IMG/VR virus record: IMGVR_UViG_2671180456_000014 | From: a virus | Taxonomy: Duplodnaviria; Heunggongvirae; Uroviricota; Caudoviricetes | DNA: 7,879 nucleotides | Strand: one strand, 5' to 3' | Part shown: positions 769 to 7,879 of the stretch, in pieces | Numbering within the stretch: the first letter of the stretch is position 1 | Layout: each line of letters opens with the position of its first letter | Notes under the pieces: generated by a model | The model's database searches: none | The model's input: the letters and a program-made list of their open reading frames with translations, nothing else | Told to the model about the DNA's origin: nothing | Translations under genes and position numbers: made by a program

Positions 769-881
769 GCCGTTTCCCGAAAAAATCCTGGCCGTTTCCC
801 GTCGGCTCATGAATGCGTTCCTCGCCGTTTCTGAAAATTTCCCTGCGGCAGCTGGTGGCTATAGAGAAAGGGCCGTTTCTG
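769..881. repeat. iteron-like direct repeats (GCCGTTTCY), 4 copies
   Basis: GCCGTTTCCC at 769-778 and 791-800, GCCGTTTCTG at 824-833 and 872-881 (last copy lies inside the gene A terminator hairpin). Same orientation and same core as the array at 4373-4501. Confidence 0.5.
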
Positions 882-894: not shown

Positions 895-1377
895 TTACAC
901 GCCATCAAGGATGTGGATGCGGTTGCTTGCGTATACATTCAGCATAAAGTTAGCGCAAAACAGTTTCCATGTATCAACGCCAGCGGTATACGTAATGTTT
1001 TTGCATTTAATCGCATTGTTGGCGATCCGCATCCCCTGCGATACTGCTTCATCGTCGGAAAATTTGAACGACGATTGAGTTTTAATCCAGACAGAAATCT
1101 GCGTAGCGAACTCAATCAGCTTGGACTGGCAGAATCGCCCGGAGCGCACCGGAAAGACGAACGTTCCGAATCCAGAATTTACCACATACGCTTTCTCAAA
1201 TACCCGCGAGTAACGACGATTGCCAATGATGTCGCGTGCAATAATGCATTTTTCTTGTGCTGACAGTTCTACCGTCTCATTGTCGCGCCATGCACCAAGT
1301 ACTCGTTTTTCAATGTCAGAGAACGTTACAGCGATATTGCCATGTGCGGGTGCGTTTACAGTAGCGATAAAATTCAT
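895..1377 (-). CDS. hypothetical protein, 160 aa (cassette gene A)
   Basis: ORF track 895-1377; ATG at 1377-1375 preceded by AAGGA with 7-nt spacer; own promoter motif and own terminator. No family recognised. Confidence 0.6.
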   Translation of the reverse strand: MNFIATVNAPAHGNIAVTFSDIEKRVLGAWRDNETVELSAQEKCIIARDIIGNRRYSRVFEKAYVVNSGFGTFVFPVRSGRFCQSKLIEFATQISVWIKTQSSFKFSDDEAVSQGMRIANNAIKCKNITYTAGVDTWKLFCANFMLNVYASNRIHILDGV

Positions 1378-1433
1378 GATTAATTCCTTATCGTAAATAA
1401 CAAATTGTTTTCTTGTTGGTGTTAATTATCGTT
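1378..1433 (-). promoter_or_regulatory. conserved cassette promoter and 5' leader (copy A)
   Basis: Sense strand: cGATAATtaacaccaacaagAAAACAATTTGTTatttacgatAAGGAattaatcATG. -10 GATAAT at 1425-1430; C/A-rich leader with palindromic core AACAAATTGTT (1399-1409); SD. Confidence 0.5.
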
Positions 1434-1552
1434 GTACGAATAAGGCGTCAAAGTGGAAAGTTGCGGTAGCCGGACGGGAACAGGTGGGTTTGTCGGTTGC
1501 CTGGAGGTAAGAGGTTGGTGTTTTTAGCCTGCGGGAAACAGGATGGTCATTT

Positions 1553-1576
1553 AAGGCCACCAGCATTGGTGGCCTT
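1553..1576 (-). terminator. stem-loop 5 nt after gene B stop (putative terminator or 3' stabiliser)
   Basis: AAGGCCACCA-gcat-TGGTGGCCTT 10-bp stem; no clean U-tract after it on the minus strand (uuaaaugacc). Contains the Chi octamer on the minus strand (CCACCAGC at 1557-1564). Confidence 0.4.
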
Positions 1577-1581
1577 ACTCT

Positions 1582-1863
1582 TTAGTGTAGCAGACCGATG
1601 TCGATGGTATCCCCTGAATCATCCACACGGATCATCAGCATGGCGAAGGCGTTTAGTGGATAGCTTGCGTGCCATTCAGGGAAGCGGTCATCTCGCATGA
1701 AGTCGGCAATGTCGTAAACGCAGCCCTCAAAGTGGAAGAATCGCGTGCTTACCTGCTCGTCATATTCCACATGATCCATTTCTTGCTGTTCTGTTTCCGG
1801 CAAGTCCAGCCATGATTCAAGGAATACATTTTGTGCTTTAGGGGTAATGGTGAAATCAGTCAT
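1582..1863 (-). CDS. small strongly acidic hypothetical protein, 93 aa (cassette gene B)
   Basis: Start chosen at ATG 1863-1861 (MTDFTITPK...) because GAGGA sits 7 nt upstream; the longer track ORF (to 1995) would run through the promoter motif. About 20 Asp/Glu versus 5 Lys/Arg by my count. Confidence 0.6.
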   Translation of the reverse strand: MTDFTITPKAQNVFLESWLDLPETEQQEMDHVEYDEQVSTRFFHFEGCVYDIADFMRDDRFPEWHASYPLNAFAMLMIRVDDSGDTIDIGLLH

Positions 1864-1917
1864 GAGCATATCCTCACTGCGTAAACATGTTGTTTTCTTG
1901 TTGGTGTAATTATCGCA
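1864..1917 (-). promoter_or_regulatory. conserved cassette promoter and 5' leader (copy B)
   Basis: Sense: TGcGATAATtacaccaacaagaaaacaACATGTTtacgcagtGAGGAtatgctcATG. Extended -10 (TG + GATAAT, 1909-1914 with TG at 1915-1916); palindromic AACATGTT core. Confidence 0.55.
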
Positions 1918-2010
1918 GTGTAGATAAGGCATAAAAGAAGTTAATACAGGCTGAATACACAAGAAAGGTTCTGGAAGTTGATAGCCAGGTTTCAAACTAA
2001 CCTTCGGTTA

Positions 2011-2047
2011 TTAAAAGTCATTTAAGACCACCAATGCTGGTGGCCTT
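2011..2047 (-). terminator. hairpin terminator after ORF C'
   Basis: AAGACCACCA-atgc-TGGTGGCCTT stem (2024-2047, one G-U pair in RNA), followed on the minus strand by AAAUGACUUUUAA. Same stem as 1553-1576 but with the 4-nt loop inverted. Contains Chi GCTGGTGG on the plus strand (2036-2043). Confidence 0.5.
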
Positions 2048-2052
2048 AATAA

Positions 2053-2196
2053 TTATCGCCCGATTACGCTAAGGATCTTTTCCTCAACTGATTTGTTGTT
2101 GCGACTAAACTGCCTTGCGTATCTGATGACAGAAGAGGCGTTTCGCTTTCTGACCATCTCGGCTCTCTCCTTCAGGCGTTTCTTGAAATCGCCCAT
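2053..2196 (-). CDS. small basic ORF, 47 aa (C'), translationally coupled to gene C
   Basis: MGDFKKRLKERAEMVRKRNASSVIRYARQFSRNNKSVEEKILSVIGR. ATG at 2196-2194 lies 2 nt after the TAA of gene C (TAAatATG); stop at 2053-2055, 5 nt before the conserved hairpin. Below the ORF-track length cutoff; called by hand. Confidence 0.3.
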   Translation of the reverse strand: MGDFKKRLKERAEMVRKRNASSVIRYARQFSRNNKSVEEKILSVIGR

Positions 2197-2198
2197 AT

Positions 2199-2573
2199 TT
2201 ACCACCAGGCGCAGAAGGTCAGTCTGTTATTGTGAAAGTCGTGGTTCTTAATCAGATCTTCCACAAGCTCTTTCAACTCCCCCACATCATGCCAGTAACC
2301 TTCATCGTACTCCTGACTGCCGAAGAAAAAACCTTCCCGGGTAGGCAAGTACTCTTCGCAATTACTTTCGTTTATGTGCATCAAATGAGCCTTCAGAAAA
2401 CAAATGTCATTCATCGTTAATTCTAAAAGCTCACAATTTTCGACTTCACCTACGTTGCGCTCCATCCACCCAACGAGCGCATTGAACTTACGGAAGTAAG
2501 CAACCTGCTTTCTGGATGCCTCGTTATTCAGATCGTTTTTAGGCTGTGTCTCGATATAGATATCAAGTCCCAT
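2199..2573 (-). CDS. acidic hypothetical protein, 124 aa (cassette gene C)
   Basis: Start chosen at ATG 2573-2571 (MGLDIYIE...) with AAGGAAA 5-8 nt upstream; alternative GTG start at 2615 gives the 138-aa track ORF. Confidence 0.55.
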   Translation of the reverse strand: MGLDIYIETQPKNDLNNEASRKQVAYFRKFNALVGWMERNVGEVENCELLELTMNDICFLKAHLMHINESNCEEYLPTREGFFFGSQEYDEGYWHDVGELKELVEDLIKNHDFHNNRLTFCAWW

Positions 2574-2650
2574 GATGGTTTCCTTATTAAGTTGCTTCAG
2601 TGAAATCATTTTCACAAATCAGATAAGGCAGAAAACAAATTGTTATCGGG
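2574..2650 (-). promoter_or_regulatory. upstream region of gene C with one copy of the palindromic core
   Basis: Sense: ccGATAACAATTTGTTTTCtgccttatctg... Core at 2631-2644. Arrangement differs from the other cassettes and the -10 is not clear. Confidence 0.3.
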
Positions 2651-2682
2651 CATAATAAAATGGCGCGGTTTACGCGCCATTT
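2648..2682 (-). terminator. Rho-independent terminator of gene D
   Basis: AAATGGCGCG-gttta-CGCGCCATTT 10-bp stem (2658-2682), followed on the minus strand by UAUUAUG; 8 nt after the gene D stop. Confidence 0.6.
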
Positions 2683-2690
2683 AAAGAGGA

Positions 2691-3086
2691 TTAAGCGAAT
2701 ACGCTTTCAGGGATTAAGGTGTCAGCAGGAATGCCGGAGGTAATGCGCAGACCATACTGGCCAATCCAGGCGGTGTTGGTATTCAGGTTGGAGGCGAATA
2801 CGGTGTTAACCATATTCATCATTGGTTCAAACACCTCTTCATCAACCTGGCGGAAGTAGTTCTCGATTTTCAGCAGCAGCGGGTCAGTTGCATCGAAAAT
2901 AGACTGGTATTGAGTCTCGTACTCGCCGCCGGAGGCATCACCTTTACGCACGATCGTACTGGCCTGGACTTCGGCGCCAGTTTCGGTGTTGTACGTAACA
3001 ACGGTGATTTTTGCCACATTCTTACCTTCGGCGGTTTCAGAGGCATAGTAAACATCAACTGTCAGTTTTTCGCGTTTAACGGTCAT
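2691..3086 (-). CDS. hypothetical protein, 131 aa (gene D)
   Basis: Start ATG 3086-3084 (MTVKREKLTVDVYY...) with GGAGAG SD; the track ORF extends 22 codons upstream across the promoter. Has its own sigma70-type promoter rather than the cassette motif. Confidence 0.6.
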   Translation of the reverse strand: MTVKREKLTVDVYYASETAEGKNVAKITVVTYNTETGAEVQASTIVRKGDASGGEYETQYQSIFDATDPLLLKIENYFRQVDEEVFEPMMNMVNTVFASNLNTNTAWIGQYGLRITSGIPADTLIPESVFA

Positions 3087-3110
3087 TTCACTCTCCGTAG
3101 TGTTTTGGTT

Positions 3111-3147
3111 ATTTTTATATTCTATGATCGTAAGTATGTACTTACAA
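3111..3147 (-). promoter_or_regulatory. sigma70-type promoter of gene D with overlapping inverted repeat
   Basis: Minus strand: -35 TTGTAA (3147-3142), 17-bp spacer, -10 TAGAAT (3124-3119). Inverted repeat GTAAGTA-tg-TACTTAC (3130-3145) overlaps -35 and spacer. Confidence 0.55.
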
Positions 3148-3150
3148 TAC

Positions 3151-3180
3151 AAAAAAAAGCCCCGTAAGGATGGCGGGGCT
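3151..3180 (-). terminator. Rho-independent terminator of gene E
   Basis: Minus strand: AGCCCCG-ccatcctta-CGGGGCT followed by UUUUUUUU (the A8 run at 3151-3158 on the plus strand). Confidence 0.7.
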
Positions 3181-3214
3181 GTCGTACGGTCGACTAATTA
3201 CCACTTGCACATTA

Positions 3215-3526
3215 TCAGGCTATTGCCATCACTGATGCTCTCTGAATTTCTTGCTGGGCCACGCGGTTAACTTCCATCAAAGCCAGTTCGAGCTGATGTT
3301 CCGGCCACATTCTTTGAAATGCCATCCAGCCTTTTCCACGCTGGCGACGAACATTCATTACATAACGAGTAAAGGTGTTTTTATCGAAAGACACCGCTGT
3401 TTCACGGAACAGACGAATAGAGGTTCCATTGGCAACGATGTCCAGCAAAGTTAATTGAGCAACCAGCGCAGGCTTCTCTTTTCTCTTCTGGTCTTTGTCC
3501 AGACCAAGAACCAATGATTTTTTCAT
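3215..3526 (-). CDS. small basic hypothetical protein, 103 aa (cassette gene E)
   Basis: Start ATG 3526-3524 (MKKSLVLGLDKDQKRKEK...) with GGAG 5 nt upstream; TGA stop at 3215-3217. Lys/Arg-rich N-terminus and RRQRGKG stretch. Confidence 0.6.
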   Translation of the reverse strand: MKKSLVLGLDKDQKRKEKPALVAQLTLLDIVANGTSIRLFRETAVSFDKNTFTRYVMNVRRQRGKGWMAFQRMWPEHQLELALMEVNRVAQQEIQRASVMAIA

Positions 3527-3573
3527 TACAACTCCGTAAACAACTTGTTTTCTCAATGGCGTAAATAATACCA
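3527..3573 (-). promoter_or_regulatory. conserved cassette promoter and 5' leader (copy E)
   Basis: Sense: TGgTATTATttacgccattgagAAAACAAGTTGTTTacGGAGttgtaaATG. Extended -10 (TG + TATTAT, 3565-3570); palindromic core 3538-3554. Confidence 0.5.
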
Positions 3574-3639
3574 GTAAGAAAACGGCTACAAAGCATATTG
3601 ATCAGGCGCATGAGCGATATGCAGGTTCTTCCCTGCGGC

Positions 3640-3670
3640 TATAGAGAAATTAAGCCAGCATTGCTGGCTT
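3640..3670 (-). terminator. hairpin terminator of gene F
   Basis: AAGCCAGC-att-GCTGGCTT stem (3652-3670) followed on the minus strand by AAUUUCUCUAUAG; same ctatagaga flank as the gene A terminator. Confidence 0.5.
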
Positions 3671-3679
3671 TGGTTGGGG

Positions 3680-4009
3680 TTACTCGAATACTTCAAGAAA
3701 CTCCTGAACGTCCCAATGCTGGACGAGGTGAAGATAGACCTTAGAAATAACGTCATTCTCGCTATCGCATGTGAAGTAGTACTTCTGGCTGCGGTTGTAT
3801 GTGTCCACACAAAATTCGCTCATATCCATAAAGTCAGCATCTTCACCCATGTCGCAAATCATCAAAGCAGGTGCGTCATCACGAGTCATCAGCTCAAGCA
3901 CCCACCGCGAATTGATCAGAGTGGAAGACCAACCTTCTAACTCATAAAACTGATCAAACTCTTTTTGAGTTAATTTCTTAATTTGGTTGATGTCGATATT
4001 TGCAAACAT
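3680..4009 (-). CDS. small strongly acidic hypothetical protein, 109 aa (cassette gene F)
   Basis: Start ATG 4009-4007 (MFANIDINQ...) with AAGGA 7 nt upstream; the longer track start (4030) falls inside the leader motif. About 22 Asp/Glu versus 8 Lys/Arg by my count. Confidence 0.6.
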   Translation of the reverse strand: MFANIDINQIKKLTQKEFDQFYELEGWSSTLINSRWVLELMTRDDAPALMICDMGEDADFMDMSEFCVDTYNRSQKYYFTCDSENDVISKVYLHLVQHWDVQEFLEVFE

Positions 4010-4056
4010 AAAGCAATCCTTAAACAACATGTTTTCTTGATGGTGTTATTATCGCA
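4010..4056 (-). promoter_or_regulatory. conserved cassette promoter and 5' leader (copy F)
   Basis: Sense: TGcGATAATaacaccatcaagaaaACATGTtgtttAAGGAttgctttATG. Extended -10 GATAAT at 4048-4053 with TG at 4054-4055. Confidence 0.55.
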
Positions 4057-4372
4057 ATAACGCACAGGCGAAAAAGAGTTTTATTCCGGTGAATGTGGTT
4101 TTGGCAGTGAGTTTTCAGGTTCAGTACCGAGTACACTTTTTACATTATTCTGATTTAGTGGCCGAAGGTGGCTGGTGGGCAGAATAATCATCTCCCCGAA
4201 AACCTACTGAAATCGATTGTGACCCGTTGGCTGTCTGGCACAATTACGCTGTAGCTGGGCATTCAGAGGGAATCCAGCGGTAAGTAAGTTCGCCTGCACG
4301 TGAGCGCCTCTCTTCTTCCCGCACATTACAGGTGGGCAGCCGCAACTCTCCCTCACGCTATACCGGTACGCC

Positions 4373-4501
4373 GCCGTTCCTGAACCGGCATCGAGCCTTT
4401 TCCCGAAATCCACACAGGCAACTCGACCGTTTCCCTGAAAACCTCCAGCCGTTCCCCGAAGGCAACCCAGCCGTTTCTGTAGCGGGATGCAGCCTTTTCC
4501 C
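4373..4501. repeat. iteron-like array: 6 direct repeats at about 22-bp period
   Basis: Plus-strand GCCKTTYCC cores begin at 4373, 4395, 4426(7), 4448, 4470, 4492 (spacings 22, 31, 22, 22, 22). Minus-strand reading is GGRAAMGGC. Confidence 0.6.
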
Positions 4502-4559
4502 TGTATGGACCGAAGGCTGACCGTAGGGGTGTTACGGGGGATAAAATCAGGAGTTGAAT

Positions 4560-4590
4560 AAATACGAAAAAGGAGGCGACACCCCTCCTT
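4560..4590 (-). terminator. Rho-independent terminator, no ORF upstream
   Basis: Minus strand: AAGGAGG-ggugucg-CCUCCUU followed by UUUCGUAUUUAUU. Lies between the orphan promoter motif and the iteron array. Confidence 0.5.
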
Positions 4591-4623
4591 CCCTCCCCAC
4601 TTATACATACCTGTCTTGTTCGC

Positions 4624-4657
4624 TATACATGTTGTGTTTTCTTCGTGTTTTATCTGT
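4624..4657 (-). promoter_or_regulatory. orphan (ORF-less) copy of the cassette promoter and leader motif
   Basis: Sense: agATAAAAcacgaagaaaacacaACATGTatagcg aligns with cGATAATtaacaccaacaagaaaacaaTTTGTT; -10 is degenerate (GATAAA). No credible ORF before the terminator at 4560-4590. Confidence 0.35.
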
Positions 4658-4699
4658 TTCAACCTCTCTATAGGCGTTAATGCTCACTCCTTCCAGAAC

Positions 4700-5460
4700 G
4701 TTCTATACGGCGACTATTTCTGTTGGTGAATTGGGTGTGTTGTTTTCTCTGTCGGTGTATGTGGTTTCGTTAGTTTTGCGGTGGTTCTTCTATGGGGTGT
4801 TCTCGTCGTTTTGGTGATTGTTCTTCTCCGTGTATGGAGTAATGGCAGGTGGGCGATTGCTTTCGTTATTGTGTTTGAGTTGTTTGTCTGGAGTGTGTGA
4901 AAGGCTTTTGTAGTTATTCGTGTGTTGGGTAATGGCGTTTCCCGTGATTGTTATGTTTCGTGTCTTTTGGGATTGAGAGAAGCCTTGCGGTTACAGGCTT
5001 CGTTGGGGTTTCAGTGATTCTGGTGTTTCTTCGCTGTTTGGGGAATGGCGTATCGTGGGTATTGCGCGTATGAATGTTTTCGGATTGCCTGTGAAAGTTA
5101 GGTTGGTTGTCCGGTAGCCTGGGAAGAAGAGGTGGGTCTTTTCGGTAGCCTGCCATAAAGAGGTTGGTTGTTTTGGGTAATGGCATATGTGTTATTTAGT
5201 TGTTTTGTTATGCCTGAAAATAAGTTGTTTATATGGTTGTGTAACGCAACGGGAACGATTTTGAGCGTGTGTTTTTGTTGGTAGTGTGTTGGGTCGTCTG
5301 TGGTGAAAATTGGACGCTGTGGCGCTGTCTGCTGCGTAGAGTTACGGGTATAAGCAGTGATGTGTGAAAACGTCAATTTTTTAGACCAAATCGGGTGAAA
5401 GCGTTGATGTTTCGTTGATCTGTTATTCAGTTGTTTTCTTGATTGTATAAACAACTATAA
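4700..5460. repeat. strongly G/T-skewed non-coding region of degenerate intergenic-module repeats
   Basis: Plus strand is about 80% G+T in sampled stretches. Recurrent GGTAATGGC units near 4842, 4931, 5044, 5180; 5113-5185 aligns with the region upstream of promoter A (1464-1540); degenerate promoter-motif copies at 5274-5290 and 5431-5445. No credible ORF on either strand. Confidence 0.55.
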
Positions 5461-5518
5461 CTTATTGATATTTAAGGATGTGATTGCGGGTATGGAAGGG
5501 GAGTAGTGGCGATCAACG

Positions 5519-5538
5519 GATTCTTATAGAAAAGAATC
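5519..5538. other. inverted repeat downstream of gene H
   Basis: GATTCTT-atagaa-AAGAATC 7-bp stem; no U-tract on the minus strand, so not a canonical terminator. Confidence 0.3.
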
Positions 5539-5564
5539 AAATTGTGACCGCCATTATCAATGTT

Positions 5565-6805: not shown

Positions 6806-7879
6806 TTACTTAACCTGGTGGCCTGGTTTAGCACCAGCATCCGGGCTTAACAGGAAGATATCTTTCCCGCCGGGGCCAGCAGCCATCACCATGCCTTCGG
6901 AGATACCGAAGCGCATTTTACGCGGTGCCAGGTTAGCCACCATAATGGTGTGACGACCAATCAGTGCCTGTGGATCTGGATAAGCGGAACGGATGCCTGA
7001 GAAGACATTACGCTTTTCACCGCCGAGATCCAGCGTCAGGCGTAGCAGTTTGTCAGAACCTTCTACAAACTCTGCGTTTTCAATCAGCGCCACGCGCAGG
7101 TCAACTTTGGCGAAGTCGTNNNNNNNNNNNNNNNNNNNNNNNNNNNNNNNNNNNNNNNNNNNNNNNNNNNNNNNNNNNNNNNNNNNNNNNNNNNNNNNNN
7201 NNNNNNNNNNNNNNNNNNNGTCAGGCGTAGCAGTTTGTCAGAACCTTCTACAAACTCTGCGTTTTCAATCAGCGCCACGCGCAGGTCAACTTTGGCGAAG
7301 TCGTCAAAGGTGATAGTTTCCTGAATCGGGTCGTCAGCCAGTGGGCCAGTTACCGGTGCGGCTGTGGCTTTCACTTCTTCTTTGGATGCTTCCACCAGTG
7401 CTTCAACCTGCTTCATATCGATGCGGTTATACAGTGCCTTGAACGGATTCACTTTATGGCCCAGCAACGGTTGCTGGATGCCATCCCAGGTTAGTTCTGT
7501 ATTGAGGAATGCCTCTGCACGTTCAGTCAGTTTTGGCAGTACCGGTTTCAGGTACGTCATCAGCACGCGGAACAGATTAATGCCCATAGAGCAAATCGCC
7601 TGCAGATCGGCATCGCGTCCTTCCTGCTTCGCCACCACCCACGGAGCCTGTTCATCGACATAGCGGTTAGCCAGGTCAGCCAATGCCATGATTTCACGGA
7701 TAGCTTTACCAAATTCGCGGCTTTCCCATGCTTCGCCAATCACTTCAGCGGCATCAGTAAAGGTTTTGTACAGTTGCGGGTCAGCCAGTTCGCCTGCCAG
7801 CACGCCGTCAAAACGCTTGTTGATAAAGCCTGCATTACGAGAGGCCAGGTTAACCACTTTGTTCACGATATCGGCATTC
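6806..7879 (-). CDS. metG: methionyl-tRNA synthetase, 3' portion (runs off window; interrupted by assembly gap)
   Basis: Minus-strand translation gives ...[105 protein letters not shown], which I recognise as the enterobacterial MetG C-terminus (tRNA-binding domain). TAA stop at 6806-6808. The apparent frame change is fully explained by the 100-N gap plus 85-bp duplication (185 bp, not a multiple of 3). Confidence 0.9.
7035..7304. repeat. 85-bp exact duplication flanking the gap (7035-7119 = 7220-7304), assembly artefact
   Basis: Identical sequence gtcaggcgtagcagtttgtcagaacc...ggcgaagtcgt on both sides of the N run; collapsing one copy and the gap restores a continuous metG reading frame. 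Confidence 0.9.
7120..7219. other. scaffold gap (100 N)
   Basis: Run of exactly 100 n characters. Confidence 0.97.

Follow-up and report, generated by a model that had tools for sequence, protein, structure and literature searches.

Introduction

Iteron-like arrays, in which short repeats follow one another in the same orientation, are a known kind of genetic element. Theta-replicon iteron systems include the gamma origin of R6K with its seven 22-bp iterons and pi protein, oriR and incA of P1, and ori2 and incC of F. Short direct-repeat arrays with phage-encoded, often winged-helix organisers mark the origins of lambda (ori and O), P4 (ori and crr, with alpha) and SPP1 (oriL and oriR, with G38P), and winged-helix or ribbon-helix-helix centromeres are represented by TubR–tubC of pBtoxis and c-st, ParR–parC of R1 and pSK41, and the centromeres of N15. 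Here we analyse an array of this architecture in a 7,879-nucleotide stretch of viral DNA (Caudoviricetes; IMG/VR record IMGVR_UViG_2671180456_000014), referred to below as the window, which we assign to a phage-plasmid of the SSU5 supergroup. An initial annotation, made from the letters of the window, described six GCCKTTYCC cores with 22-bp phasing in a gene-free region at 4373–4501, likened them to Rep iterons, partition centromeres and phage-origin repeats, and preferred a role as DNA sites to a second reading as an RNA that titrates CsrA or RsmA.

The comparison of architectures is apt. With theta-replicon Rep iterons the locus shares tandem same-orientation repeats of about 22 bp, present in 4–7 copies that change by whole units, a further array some way off (like incA, incC and the alpha and beta sites of R6K) and a likely winged-helix binder. 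With the lambda, P4 and SPP1 origins it shares short direct-repeat arrays accompanied by a phage-encoded protein of the winged-helix kind, two sites a few kb apart, and a temperate phage carrying its own helicase, primase and polymerase genes. The likeness to CsrB/RsmZ-type small RNAs is confined to repeated GGA-containing motifs on one strand. What is new is that the arrays are orphan with respect to the Rep and Par systems of the plasmid, that they form a conserved pair inside a larger conserved non-coding module, and that they track a very narrow, uncharacterised winged-helix family. No description of the arrays, or of an origin, centromere or non-coding RNA at this locus, was found in the searchable literature. 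The evidence below makes it likely that the arrays are protein-binding DNA sites.

Results

The 501 bases around the array described in the initial annotation (array A) match 223 of 5426 complete Escherichia coli genomes, in every case on plasmids of about 105–115 kb and never on the chromosome. The same bases are 99% identical to phage Cyrano (pLF82) and 72% identical to Salmonella phage SSU5, and because of these matches the window is identified as a piece of an SSU5/pLF82-type phage-plasmid. We use NZ_CP085184.1 (111.7 kb) as the annotated reference relative; base 1 of the window corresponds to its position 71121.

Array A occupies positions 4373–4500 on the plus strand. Its six cores lie at 4373–4381 (GCCGTTCCT), 4395–4403 (GCCTTTTCC), 4426–4434 (ACCGTTTCC), 4448–4456 (GCCGTTCCC), 4470–4478 (GCCGTTTCT) and 4492–4500 (GCCTTTTCC again), all in the same orientation and all at the starts given by the initial annotation, with the consensus cCA-GCC-K-TT-Y-CC-c. 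The successive spacings are 22, 31, 22, 22 and 22 bp, so the 22-bp phasing holds for four gaps and is broken by one of 31 bp. The literal GCCKTTYCC fits three of the six copies; the same-strand cores conform to (G/A)CC-K-TT-Y-C, of which CC-K-TT-Y-C is the robust part. The window contains 12 matches to CCKTTYC, 11 of them on the plus strand, and dinucleotide shuffles give 4.1 ± 2.1 (none of 200 reached 12). The densest cluster holds six matches in 130 bp, where the maximum in 2000 shuffles is three, and exact 22-bp spacings number five in the window and at most one in every one of the 2000 shuffles. Array A thus shows what generally defines an iteron array—at least three same-orientation repeats with a constant period near integral helical turns, beyond chance expectation.

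The region was described as gene-free, and this holds. The Prokaryotic Genome Annotation Pipeline of RefSeq calls no gene between about 3987 and 5564. Two open reading frames overlap the array, at 4204–4662 on the minus strand and 4332–4520 on the plus strand, and a frame of 152 amino acids over the array is annotated as CYRAN_104 in the Cyrano record. The overlapping frames are disrupted in relatives by indels of 9, 10, 22 and 44 bp. Given these frame-breaking indels and the lack of a RefSeq gene, we reject a protein-coding explanation of array A.

A second array, missed by the initial annotation, has the same motif on the same strand. Array B (769–880, plus strand) has cores at 769–777, 791–799 and 824–832; a fourth match at 872–880, which may be incidental, is part of a minus-strand terminator hairpin. 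The array lies between convergent transcription units and carries two copies of CCGTTTCCC that are invariant in eight genomes. A search of IMG/VR with the array-A profile finds array B just downstream of the gene for a 160-amino-acid protein in nearly all loci, and it is intact in Yersinia pestis plasmid pMT1. Of the 14 occurrences of GCCKTTYCY across the 111.7-kb relative, nine are within arrays A and B.

A de novo scan for other phased arrays, run on two 50-kb stretches, one from a minimal derivative and one from the reference, returned only the RepA iterons, array B, a GTAATGG family and a few exact-hexamer clusters. Two of the latter, AGCGCT and TACTTA (four copies each), were checked and are not arrays; the others fall within tail genes or close to them. 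Genome contigs scanned with a loose two-core pattern yielded only chance matches in unrelated taxa.

Plasmid records that match the gene-free region number 836 and come from Klebsiella, Escherichia, Enterobacter, Salmonella, Citrobacter, Cronobacter and other genera; the array A region by itself matches 717. In alignments of distinct types the CC, TT and C positions of the core are conserved at 0.92–1.0 against 0.5–0.7 for the spacers, and at a given copy the K position is G in some clades and T in others. The array-A profile recovers 59 distinct variants from IMG/VR contigs, among which 185 spacings measure 22 bp and 34 measure 31 bp. Copy number varies among close relatives in units of 22 or 44 bp: one E. 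coli plasmid lacks exactly 44 bp (two units), one Citrobacter plasmid lacks exactly 22 bp, and in Klebsiella plasmids the 31-bp gap is shortened to 22. The cores persist in elements from at least seven enterobacterial genera, and the conserved core with diverging spacers that is expected of an iteron array extends to relatives at 33–54% protein identity. Judged from these alignments, the pattern is characteristic of a protein that recognises a short asymmetric core sequence-specifically, with the cores presented on one face of the helix. The preference of the initial annotation for DNA sites is supported by the kept cores and drifting spacers, the 22-bp period of the 59 variants, the whole-unit copy changes and the paralogous array B.

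The same data bear on whether array A might be functionless, a slippage-generated or decaying repeat or part of a real coding gene (CYRAN_104). The copy-number differences between close relatives and the 152-codon frame annotated in one record speak for this. Cores that are kept against diverging spacers in at least seven genera, and in relatives whose flanking protein is 33% identical, speak against it, as do the syntenic paralogous array B, the frame-breaking indels and the blank RefSeq annotation, and we consider it highly improbable.

Two deletion derivatives of 52 kb and 62 kb (L139, CP057440.1, positions 39774–41729, and L138, CP043243.1) keep repA, a ParA-like pair and both array regions. 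On the 52-kb plasmid the first copy of array A is gone, removed by an IS100 insertion.

The gene that ends at base 1 of the window encodes a 216-amino-acid protein of family phrog_1513 (WP_072674418.1-type), to which no Pfam family could be assigned. It is syntenic in every relative examined, pMT1 included. An AlphaFold2 model (mean predicted local distance difference test score 83.8, predicted template modelling score 0.77) consists of an N-terminal helical bundle and a C-terminal winged helix, with helices at residues 126–137, 145–158 and 168–179, a strand between the first two, and a wing at 183–201. Conservation within the protein peaks at the predicted recognition helix, TQANQLINLCER (0.94), with the wing second (0.86); T168, Q169 and the following (K)LCERLGL are near-constant even at 31–33% overall identity. 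The best fold matches include MarR, ArsR and PadR repressors, and a BFVD search with the model gives only weak generic helix-turn-helix matches. The family forms 23 clusters among 1.84 billion protein representatives and is always syntenic. Its gene follows, in one operon, a DEAD/ResIII helicase annotated as UvsW in the Cyrano record. In lysogens of strain LF82 the phrog_1513 gene (CYRAN_113) stands at the read floor, and the upstream genes of the same cluster are expressed.

More distant relatives keep this arrangement. In L218 and L219, whose phrog_1513 proteins are 54% and 33% identical, the gene order is retained: two ParB_N genes come first, then a divergent DEAD/ResIII helicase operon with the winged-helix gene as its last member, an intergenic region, small convergent genes and a gene-free gap. 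Both elements have CCGTTYCC clusters on the same strand in the intergenic region and in the gene-free gap 4–5 kb further on. In L219 the core occurs 11 times against 1.8 expected, six of these matches coming immediately after the winged-helix operon and four falling in the gap, 4.6 kb further along. In L220, the most distant relative (AT-rich, 31% identity), GGGAAAACGTTCCC palindromes and GGCGTTTTGAA repeats stand at the same place. Because relatives with 31–54% identical proteins keep the gene and the arrays in the same places, the phrog_1513 family and the motif are co-inherited at a depth where the surrounding DNA can no longer be aligned. In all three elements the ParB_N pair and an ABC-like ATPase adjoin the terminase gene, and the order terminase, ATPase, two ParB_N genes, then the divergent helicase and winged-helix genes runs through 4175–7672 of L218, 4040–8654 of L219 and 5930–8645 of L220. 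The chance that phrog_1513 is the binder of the arrays seems to us about even. The initial annotation noted that no rep or par gene lies in the window, which is literally true, but it overlooked both array B (769–832) and this candidate gene at the very edge.

The replication and partition genes of the plasmid lie elsewhere. On the 111.7-kb reference repA occupies positions 1–1056, and the arrays lie near 71.9 and 75.4 kb. The RepA iterons are ATCCACTATAGAGAG-type (A(T/A)CCACTATAGAGAG-type) repeats on both sides of repA, about 36 kb from the arrays; upstream of the gene they recur every 21 bp and downstream at intervals of about 40 bp—a classical oriR/incA-like layout. They share no core with GCCKTTYCC, no GCCKTTYCY cluster is found near repA, and the iterons of related IncpKPHS1 plasmids have likewise been placed beside repA (PMC6735626). 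By both sequence and location, then, we reject the arrays as RepA iterons of an IncFIB-type oriR, and the likeness to theta-replicon iterons drawn in the initial annotation does not extend to the Rep system of this plasmid. The arrays also differ from the theta-replicon type in having no adjacent Rep_3- or RepA-type gene, in a conserved core that takes up only about 9–10 bp of each 22-bp unit, and in a candidate binder made of one winged helix and a helical bundle, unlike the paired WH1–WH2 fold of Rep. It follows from the same comparison that extra replicon iterons, incA-like sites at which RepA would handcuff to control copy number, are a very improbable explanation; their 22-bp phasing and copy number do resemble the arrays of P1 incA, F incC and R6K.

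The ParA/MipZ-like ATPase and its 117-amino-acid partner are encoded about 40 kb from the arrays, and no repeat array is found beside their operon. Among 797 plasmid records with the 117-amino-acid partner none is from Yersinia; pMT1 lacks the partner and nevertheless keeps array B perfectly. A centromere of the ParA-like system is rejected on these grounds, and with it the partition-centromere analogy as far as this system is concerned. A broader version would make the arrays partition centromeres or another maintenance site of the plasmid state, in which a winged-helix protein of the TubR, AspA or ParR kind coats repeats that may be dispersed as in N15 and a motor segregates the DNA. No TubZ- or ParM-type motor is present among the annotated genes, whereas such motors accompany the TubR–tubC and ParR–parC systems; the match of the phrog_1513 model to TubR is at the level of a generic winged-helix fold; and in lysogens, where expression of a partition protein would be expected, the winged-helix gene yields only floor-level reads. 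Together with the pMT1 distribution, these points leave the centromere or maintenance role unlikely, at perhaps one chance in a handful.

Between the arrays, at 895–4030 on the minus strand, lies an operon of six small genes (phrog_1641, 1845, 7971, 2473, 5125 and 7645); a fold search with the AlphaFold2 model of its 160-amino-acid product gave no match. Upstream of the operon, at 4020–4075 on the minus strand, a block with 40 bp invariant in all eight genomes compared contains an extended -10 candidate, TGCGATAAT, at 4056–4048, and is likely its promoter. An (A)GTTGTTT(T/A) element recurs at about 5205–5250 and 5420–5470 and could be operator-like. Terminators accompany both arrays. An intrinsic terminator at 4567–4593 on the minus strand, detected by a terminator scan and in the sequence as GGAGGGGTGTCGCCTCC followed by a T-run, ends minus-strand transcription about 60 bp short of array A, and array B is shielded by a minus-strand terminator at about 866–886.

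This layout invites an explanation by transcriptional control, in which a repressor, silencer or insulator would polymerise on A and B, possibly looping out 3.6 kb, to silence or time the bracketed operon. The arrays do bracket it, array A lies 310–440 bp upstream of the invariant block, the fold matches of phrog_1513 include repressors, and the operon is weakly expressed in lysogens. Neither array overlaps a promoter, however, and expression of the candidate protein is lacking in the lysogenic state, just when a repressor would have to act. The versions of SSU5 (L011, 5104–5346), Salmonella Typhi and Enterobacter (L008, L009) have an extra 243-bp plus-strand gene, SSU5_110, between the operon promoter block and array A, and in general the gene content between the arrays varies and the arrays stay constant. 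Because array B sits between convergent terminators with nothing to regulate, because both arrays are shielded from incoming transcription, and because an extra gene parts array A from the operon promoter in some genomes, a structural cis-acting role would fit better than that of an operator. Transcriptional control is accordingly given a rather low probability, a little below that of a centromere.

The RNA-level reading fares worse. It would have a minus-strand GGA-containing transcript titrate CsrA/RsmA or another RNA-binding protein, for example an FljA-like one encoded 2 kb away. The minus-strand copies do read GGGAAACGGC or CAGGAAC, and the neighbouring operon includes a gene for an FljA-family protein (Pfam Flag1_repress, E 1.9e-68); the target described for FljA is fliC mRNA. 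Yet an Rfam search at E ≤ 1 finds no family near the array, the Csr/Rsm families included; folding z-scores of -0.63 and +0.25 on the two strands are no better than shuffles; and the consensus structure of eight sequences (alifold) is weak (-19 kcal/mol for about 250 nt; covariation term -1.06). A terminator and sequence scan reveals no promoter-like site near array A, and on the minus strand the array is downstream of a strong intrinsic terminator. In RNA-seq of LF82 lysogens (Misson et al. 2023, PMC9928086), CYRAN_104 over the array has 14.3 normalised counts and CYRAN_103 in the adjoining skewed region has 5.0, which equals the floor of 5.0. Taking a local background of about 9.5, back-calculated from the fold-over-background figures of that study, CYRAN_104 reaches about 1.5 times background; these data cover lysogens and not lytic growth. 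In contrast to CsrB/RsmZ-type RNAs, the locus thus offers no covariance-model match, no presentation of GGA in hairpin loops, no structure signal, and no promoter and terminator of its own with an abundant transcript. The modular 22/44-bp indels and the strict single-strand orientation at two loci, moreover, fit DNA sites. The suggestion of a CsrA sponge finds no support in these data, and action at the RNA level in any form is very unlikely.

The FljA-family protein is full-length and encoded at 69358–69879 of NZ_CP085184.1, about 1.2 kb upstream of window base 1. Its gene is kept across the supergroup, pMT1 included, and in Cyrano (CYRAN_114) it is on in LF82 lysogens and higher in macrophages.

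Array A belongs to a larger non-coding module. The most conserved non-coding block beside it, at 4519–4605, reads GTTACGGGGGAT.AAAA..A.G..TTGAAT...TACG followed by a hairpin, and can still be matched in Klebsiella plasmids in which the array itself has diverged beyond the reach of blastn; the stem of the 4567–4593 terminator is conserved in A3. Beyond it, about 0.9 kb of gene-free DNA (4600–5500) is strongly strand-skewed and is part of the same conserved module. Its plus strand is rich in G and T, with a GC skew of about +0.45 and an AT skew down to -0.64, and its minus strand is A+C-rich and poor in G. The stretch is conserved at 67–72% across genera; it is lower in G+C and extremely skewed, and is not a classical DNA unwinding element. 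In L218 the equivalent stretch is C+T-rich, which means that the asymmetry is conserved and its type is not; L219 also has an equivalent region beside its array. Within 4600–5500 there is a duplicated GGTAGCCTG..AGAGGT(G/T)GGT and a second repeat family, GCCATT(A/C)C on the minus strand (GTAATGGC on the plus strand), at 4839–4846, 4929–4936, 5042–5049 and 5177–5184. The members of this family are spaced by 90–135 bp, are invariant in eight genomes, match the array-A core at 8 of 10 positions and are inverted relative to array A; they may represent a weaker or paralogous class of site. At 5330–5560 there are five CGTTGA/TCAACG motifs within about 200 bp, a conserved TTGACG...GGGTATAAG block and a 7-bp inverted repeat (GATTCTT/AAGAATC), possibly regulator sites at the far end of the gene-free module.

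Several features lie further from the arrays. The convergent intergenic region upstream of array B (280–770) contains two tandem plus-strand terminators, repeated ACGCGCC/GGCGCGTT motifs, clustered GATC sites and an invariant GTACATACCCATTAC. Five Chi sites (GCTGGTGG) are present in the window, at 727–734 and 1557–1564 on the minus strand and at 851–858, 2036–2043 and 4171–4178 on the plus strand, against 0.14 expected from shuffles; two flank array B convergently and one is 200 bp from array A. The Chi enrichment is probably lineage-specific, since the sites are not kept in the Salmonella, SSU5 or pMT1 versions. At the other end of the window (6806–7879 and beyond; L001 8607–11898) are metG, for methionyl-tRNA synthetase, with a run of masked bases at about 7120–7220 inside it, and a divergent apbC/mrp gene. 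We take this order to be that of the E. coli chromosome, and it looks like a captured host segment.

Discussion

In the interpretation we favour, array A is a set of phased head-to-tail sites (iterons) with a core of about 9–10 bp, G-CC-K-TT-Y-CC, repeated roughly every two helical turns, and arrays A (4373–4500) and B (769–832) form a pair within a conserved non-coding module of SSU5-supergroup phage-plasmids. The winged-helix protein phrog_1513 would bind these sites cooperatively, building on each array a one-faced nucleoprotein filament that might be bridged to the other. The complex would mark a cis-acting site for phage-mode (lytic) DNA replication or processing, an origin or organiser independent of the RepA origin, with array B as an auxiliary site. 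Taken whole—phased phrog_1513 sites that nucleate a cis-acting complex, probably for phage-mode replication—this interpretation has, in our estimate, slightly less than an even chance of being right, and its last element, the role as a lytic origin or organiser, is distinctly more tentative.

A phage-mode role is suggested because the winged-helix gene is at the read floor in lysogens that express the upstream genes of its cluster, because it shares an operon with a helicase annotated as UvsW, and because array A abuts 0.9 kb of skewed gene-free DNA with a related, inverted repeat family. The two-site layout points in the same direction by its resemblance to ori and crr of P4, oriL and oriR of SPP1, and R6K.

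Several observations weigh against this proposal. Plasmid pMT1 kept array B and lost array A. Two independent deletion derivatives without virion genes still carry the arrays, and one of them is also without annotated helicase, primase or dnaE genes; these distributions agree with a role in the plasmid state no less well than with a lytic one. No good DnaA box is seen, only two non-conserved 7-of-9 partial matches found by eye (no systematic scan was run), nor is a classical AT-rich unwinding element evident near the array. Unlike the lambda, P4 and SPP1 origins, the arrays are not in or beside the helicase and primase genes, which lie about 40 kb away on an element that also carries a phage-encoded polymerase gene, and phrog_1513, restricted to SSU5-like elements, has no sequence or family-level homology to O, alpha or G38P. 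Because the spacing in L219 is about 17–19 bp and the cores in L220 are palindromic, strict 22-bp phasing is a property of the SSU5, pSLy3 and pKpn groups and not of the whole family. What ties phrog_1513 to the arrays is synteny and co-conservation; winged-helix dimers usually prefer palindromes, and the binder could instead be the ParB_N pair, a 76-amino-acid protein or a host factor.

Phage-plasmids of the SSU5, pHCM2, pKpn and pSLy3 types are common in clinical E. coli, Klebsiella, Salmonella and Enterobacter, and some carry extended-spectrum beta-lactamase genes. Beyond the RepA replicon, the cis-acting DNA sites of the SSU5-type elements are essentially uncharted. The array pair and its candidate binder provide a testable hypothesis for 1.6 kb of unannotated DNA, namely a switch from plasmid to phage replication or another maintenance function, and the arrays offer a compact sequence signature for typing the SSU5-type group. 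We put forward tentatively, as a possibility that we rate well below even, that the arrays and the 1.6-kb gene-free module constitute a previously undescribed origin or organiser independent of RepA, run by a narrow initiator-like winged-helix family at two cooperating sites. If this is true, clinically widespread phage-plasmids would carry two mechanistically different and genetically separable replicons.

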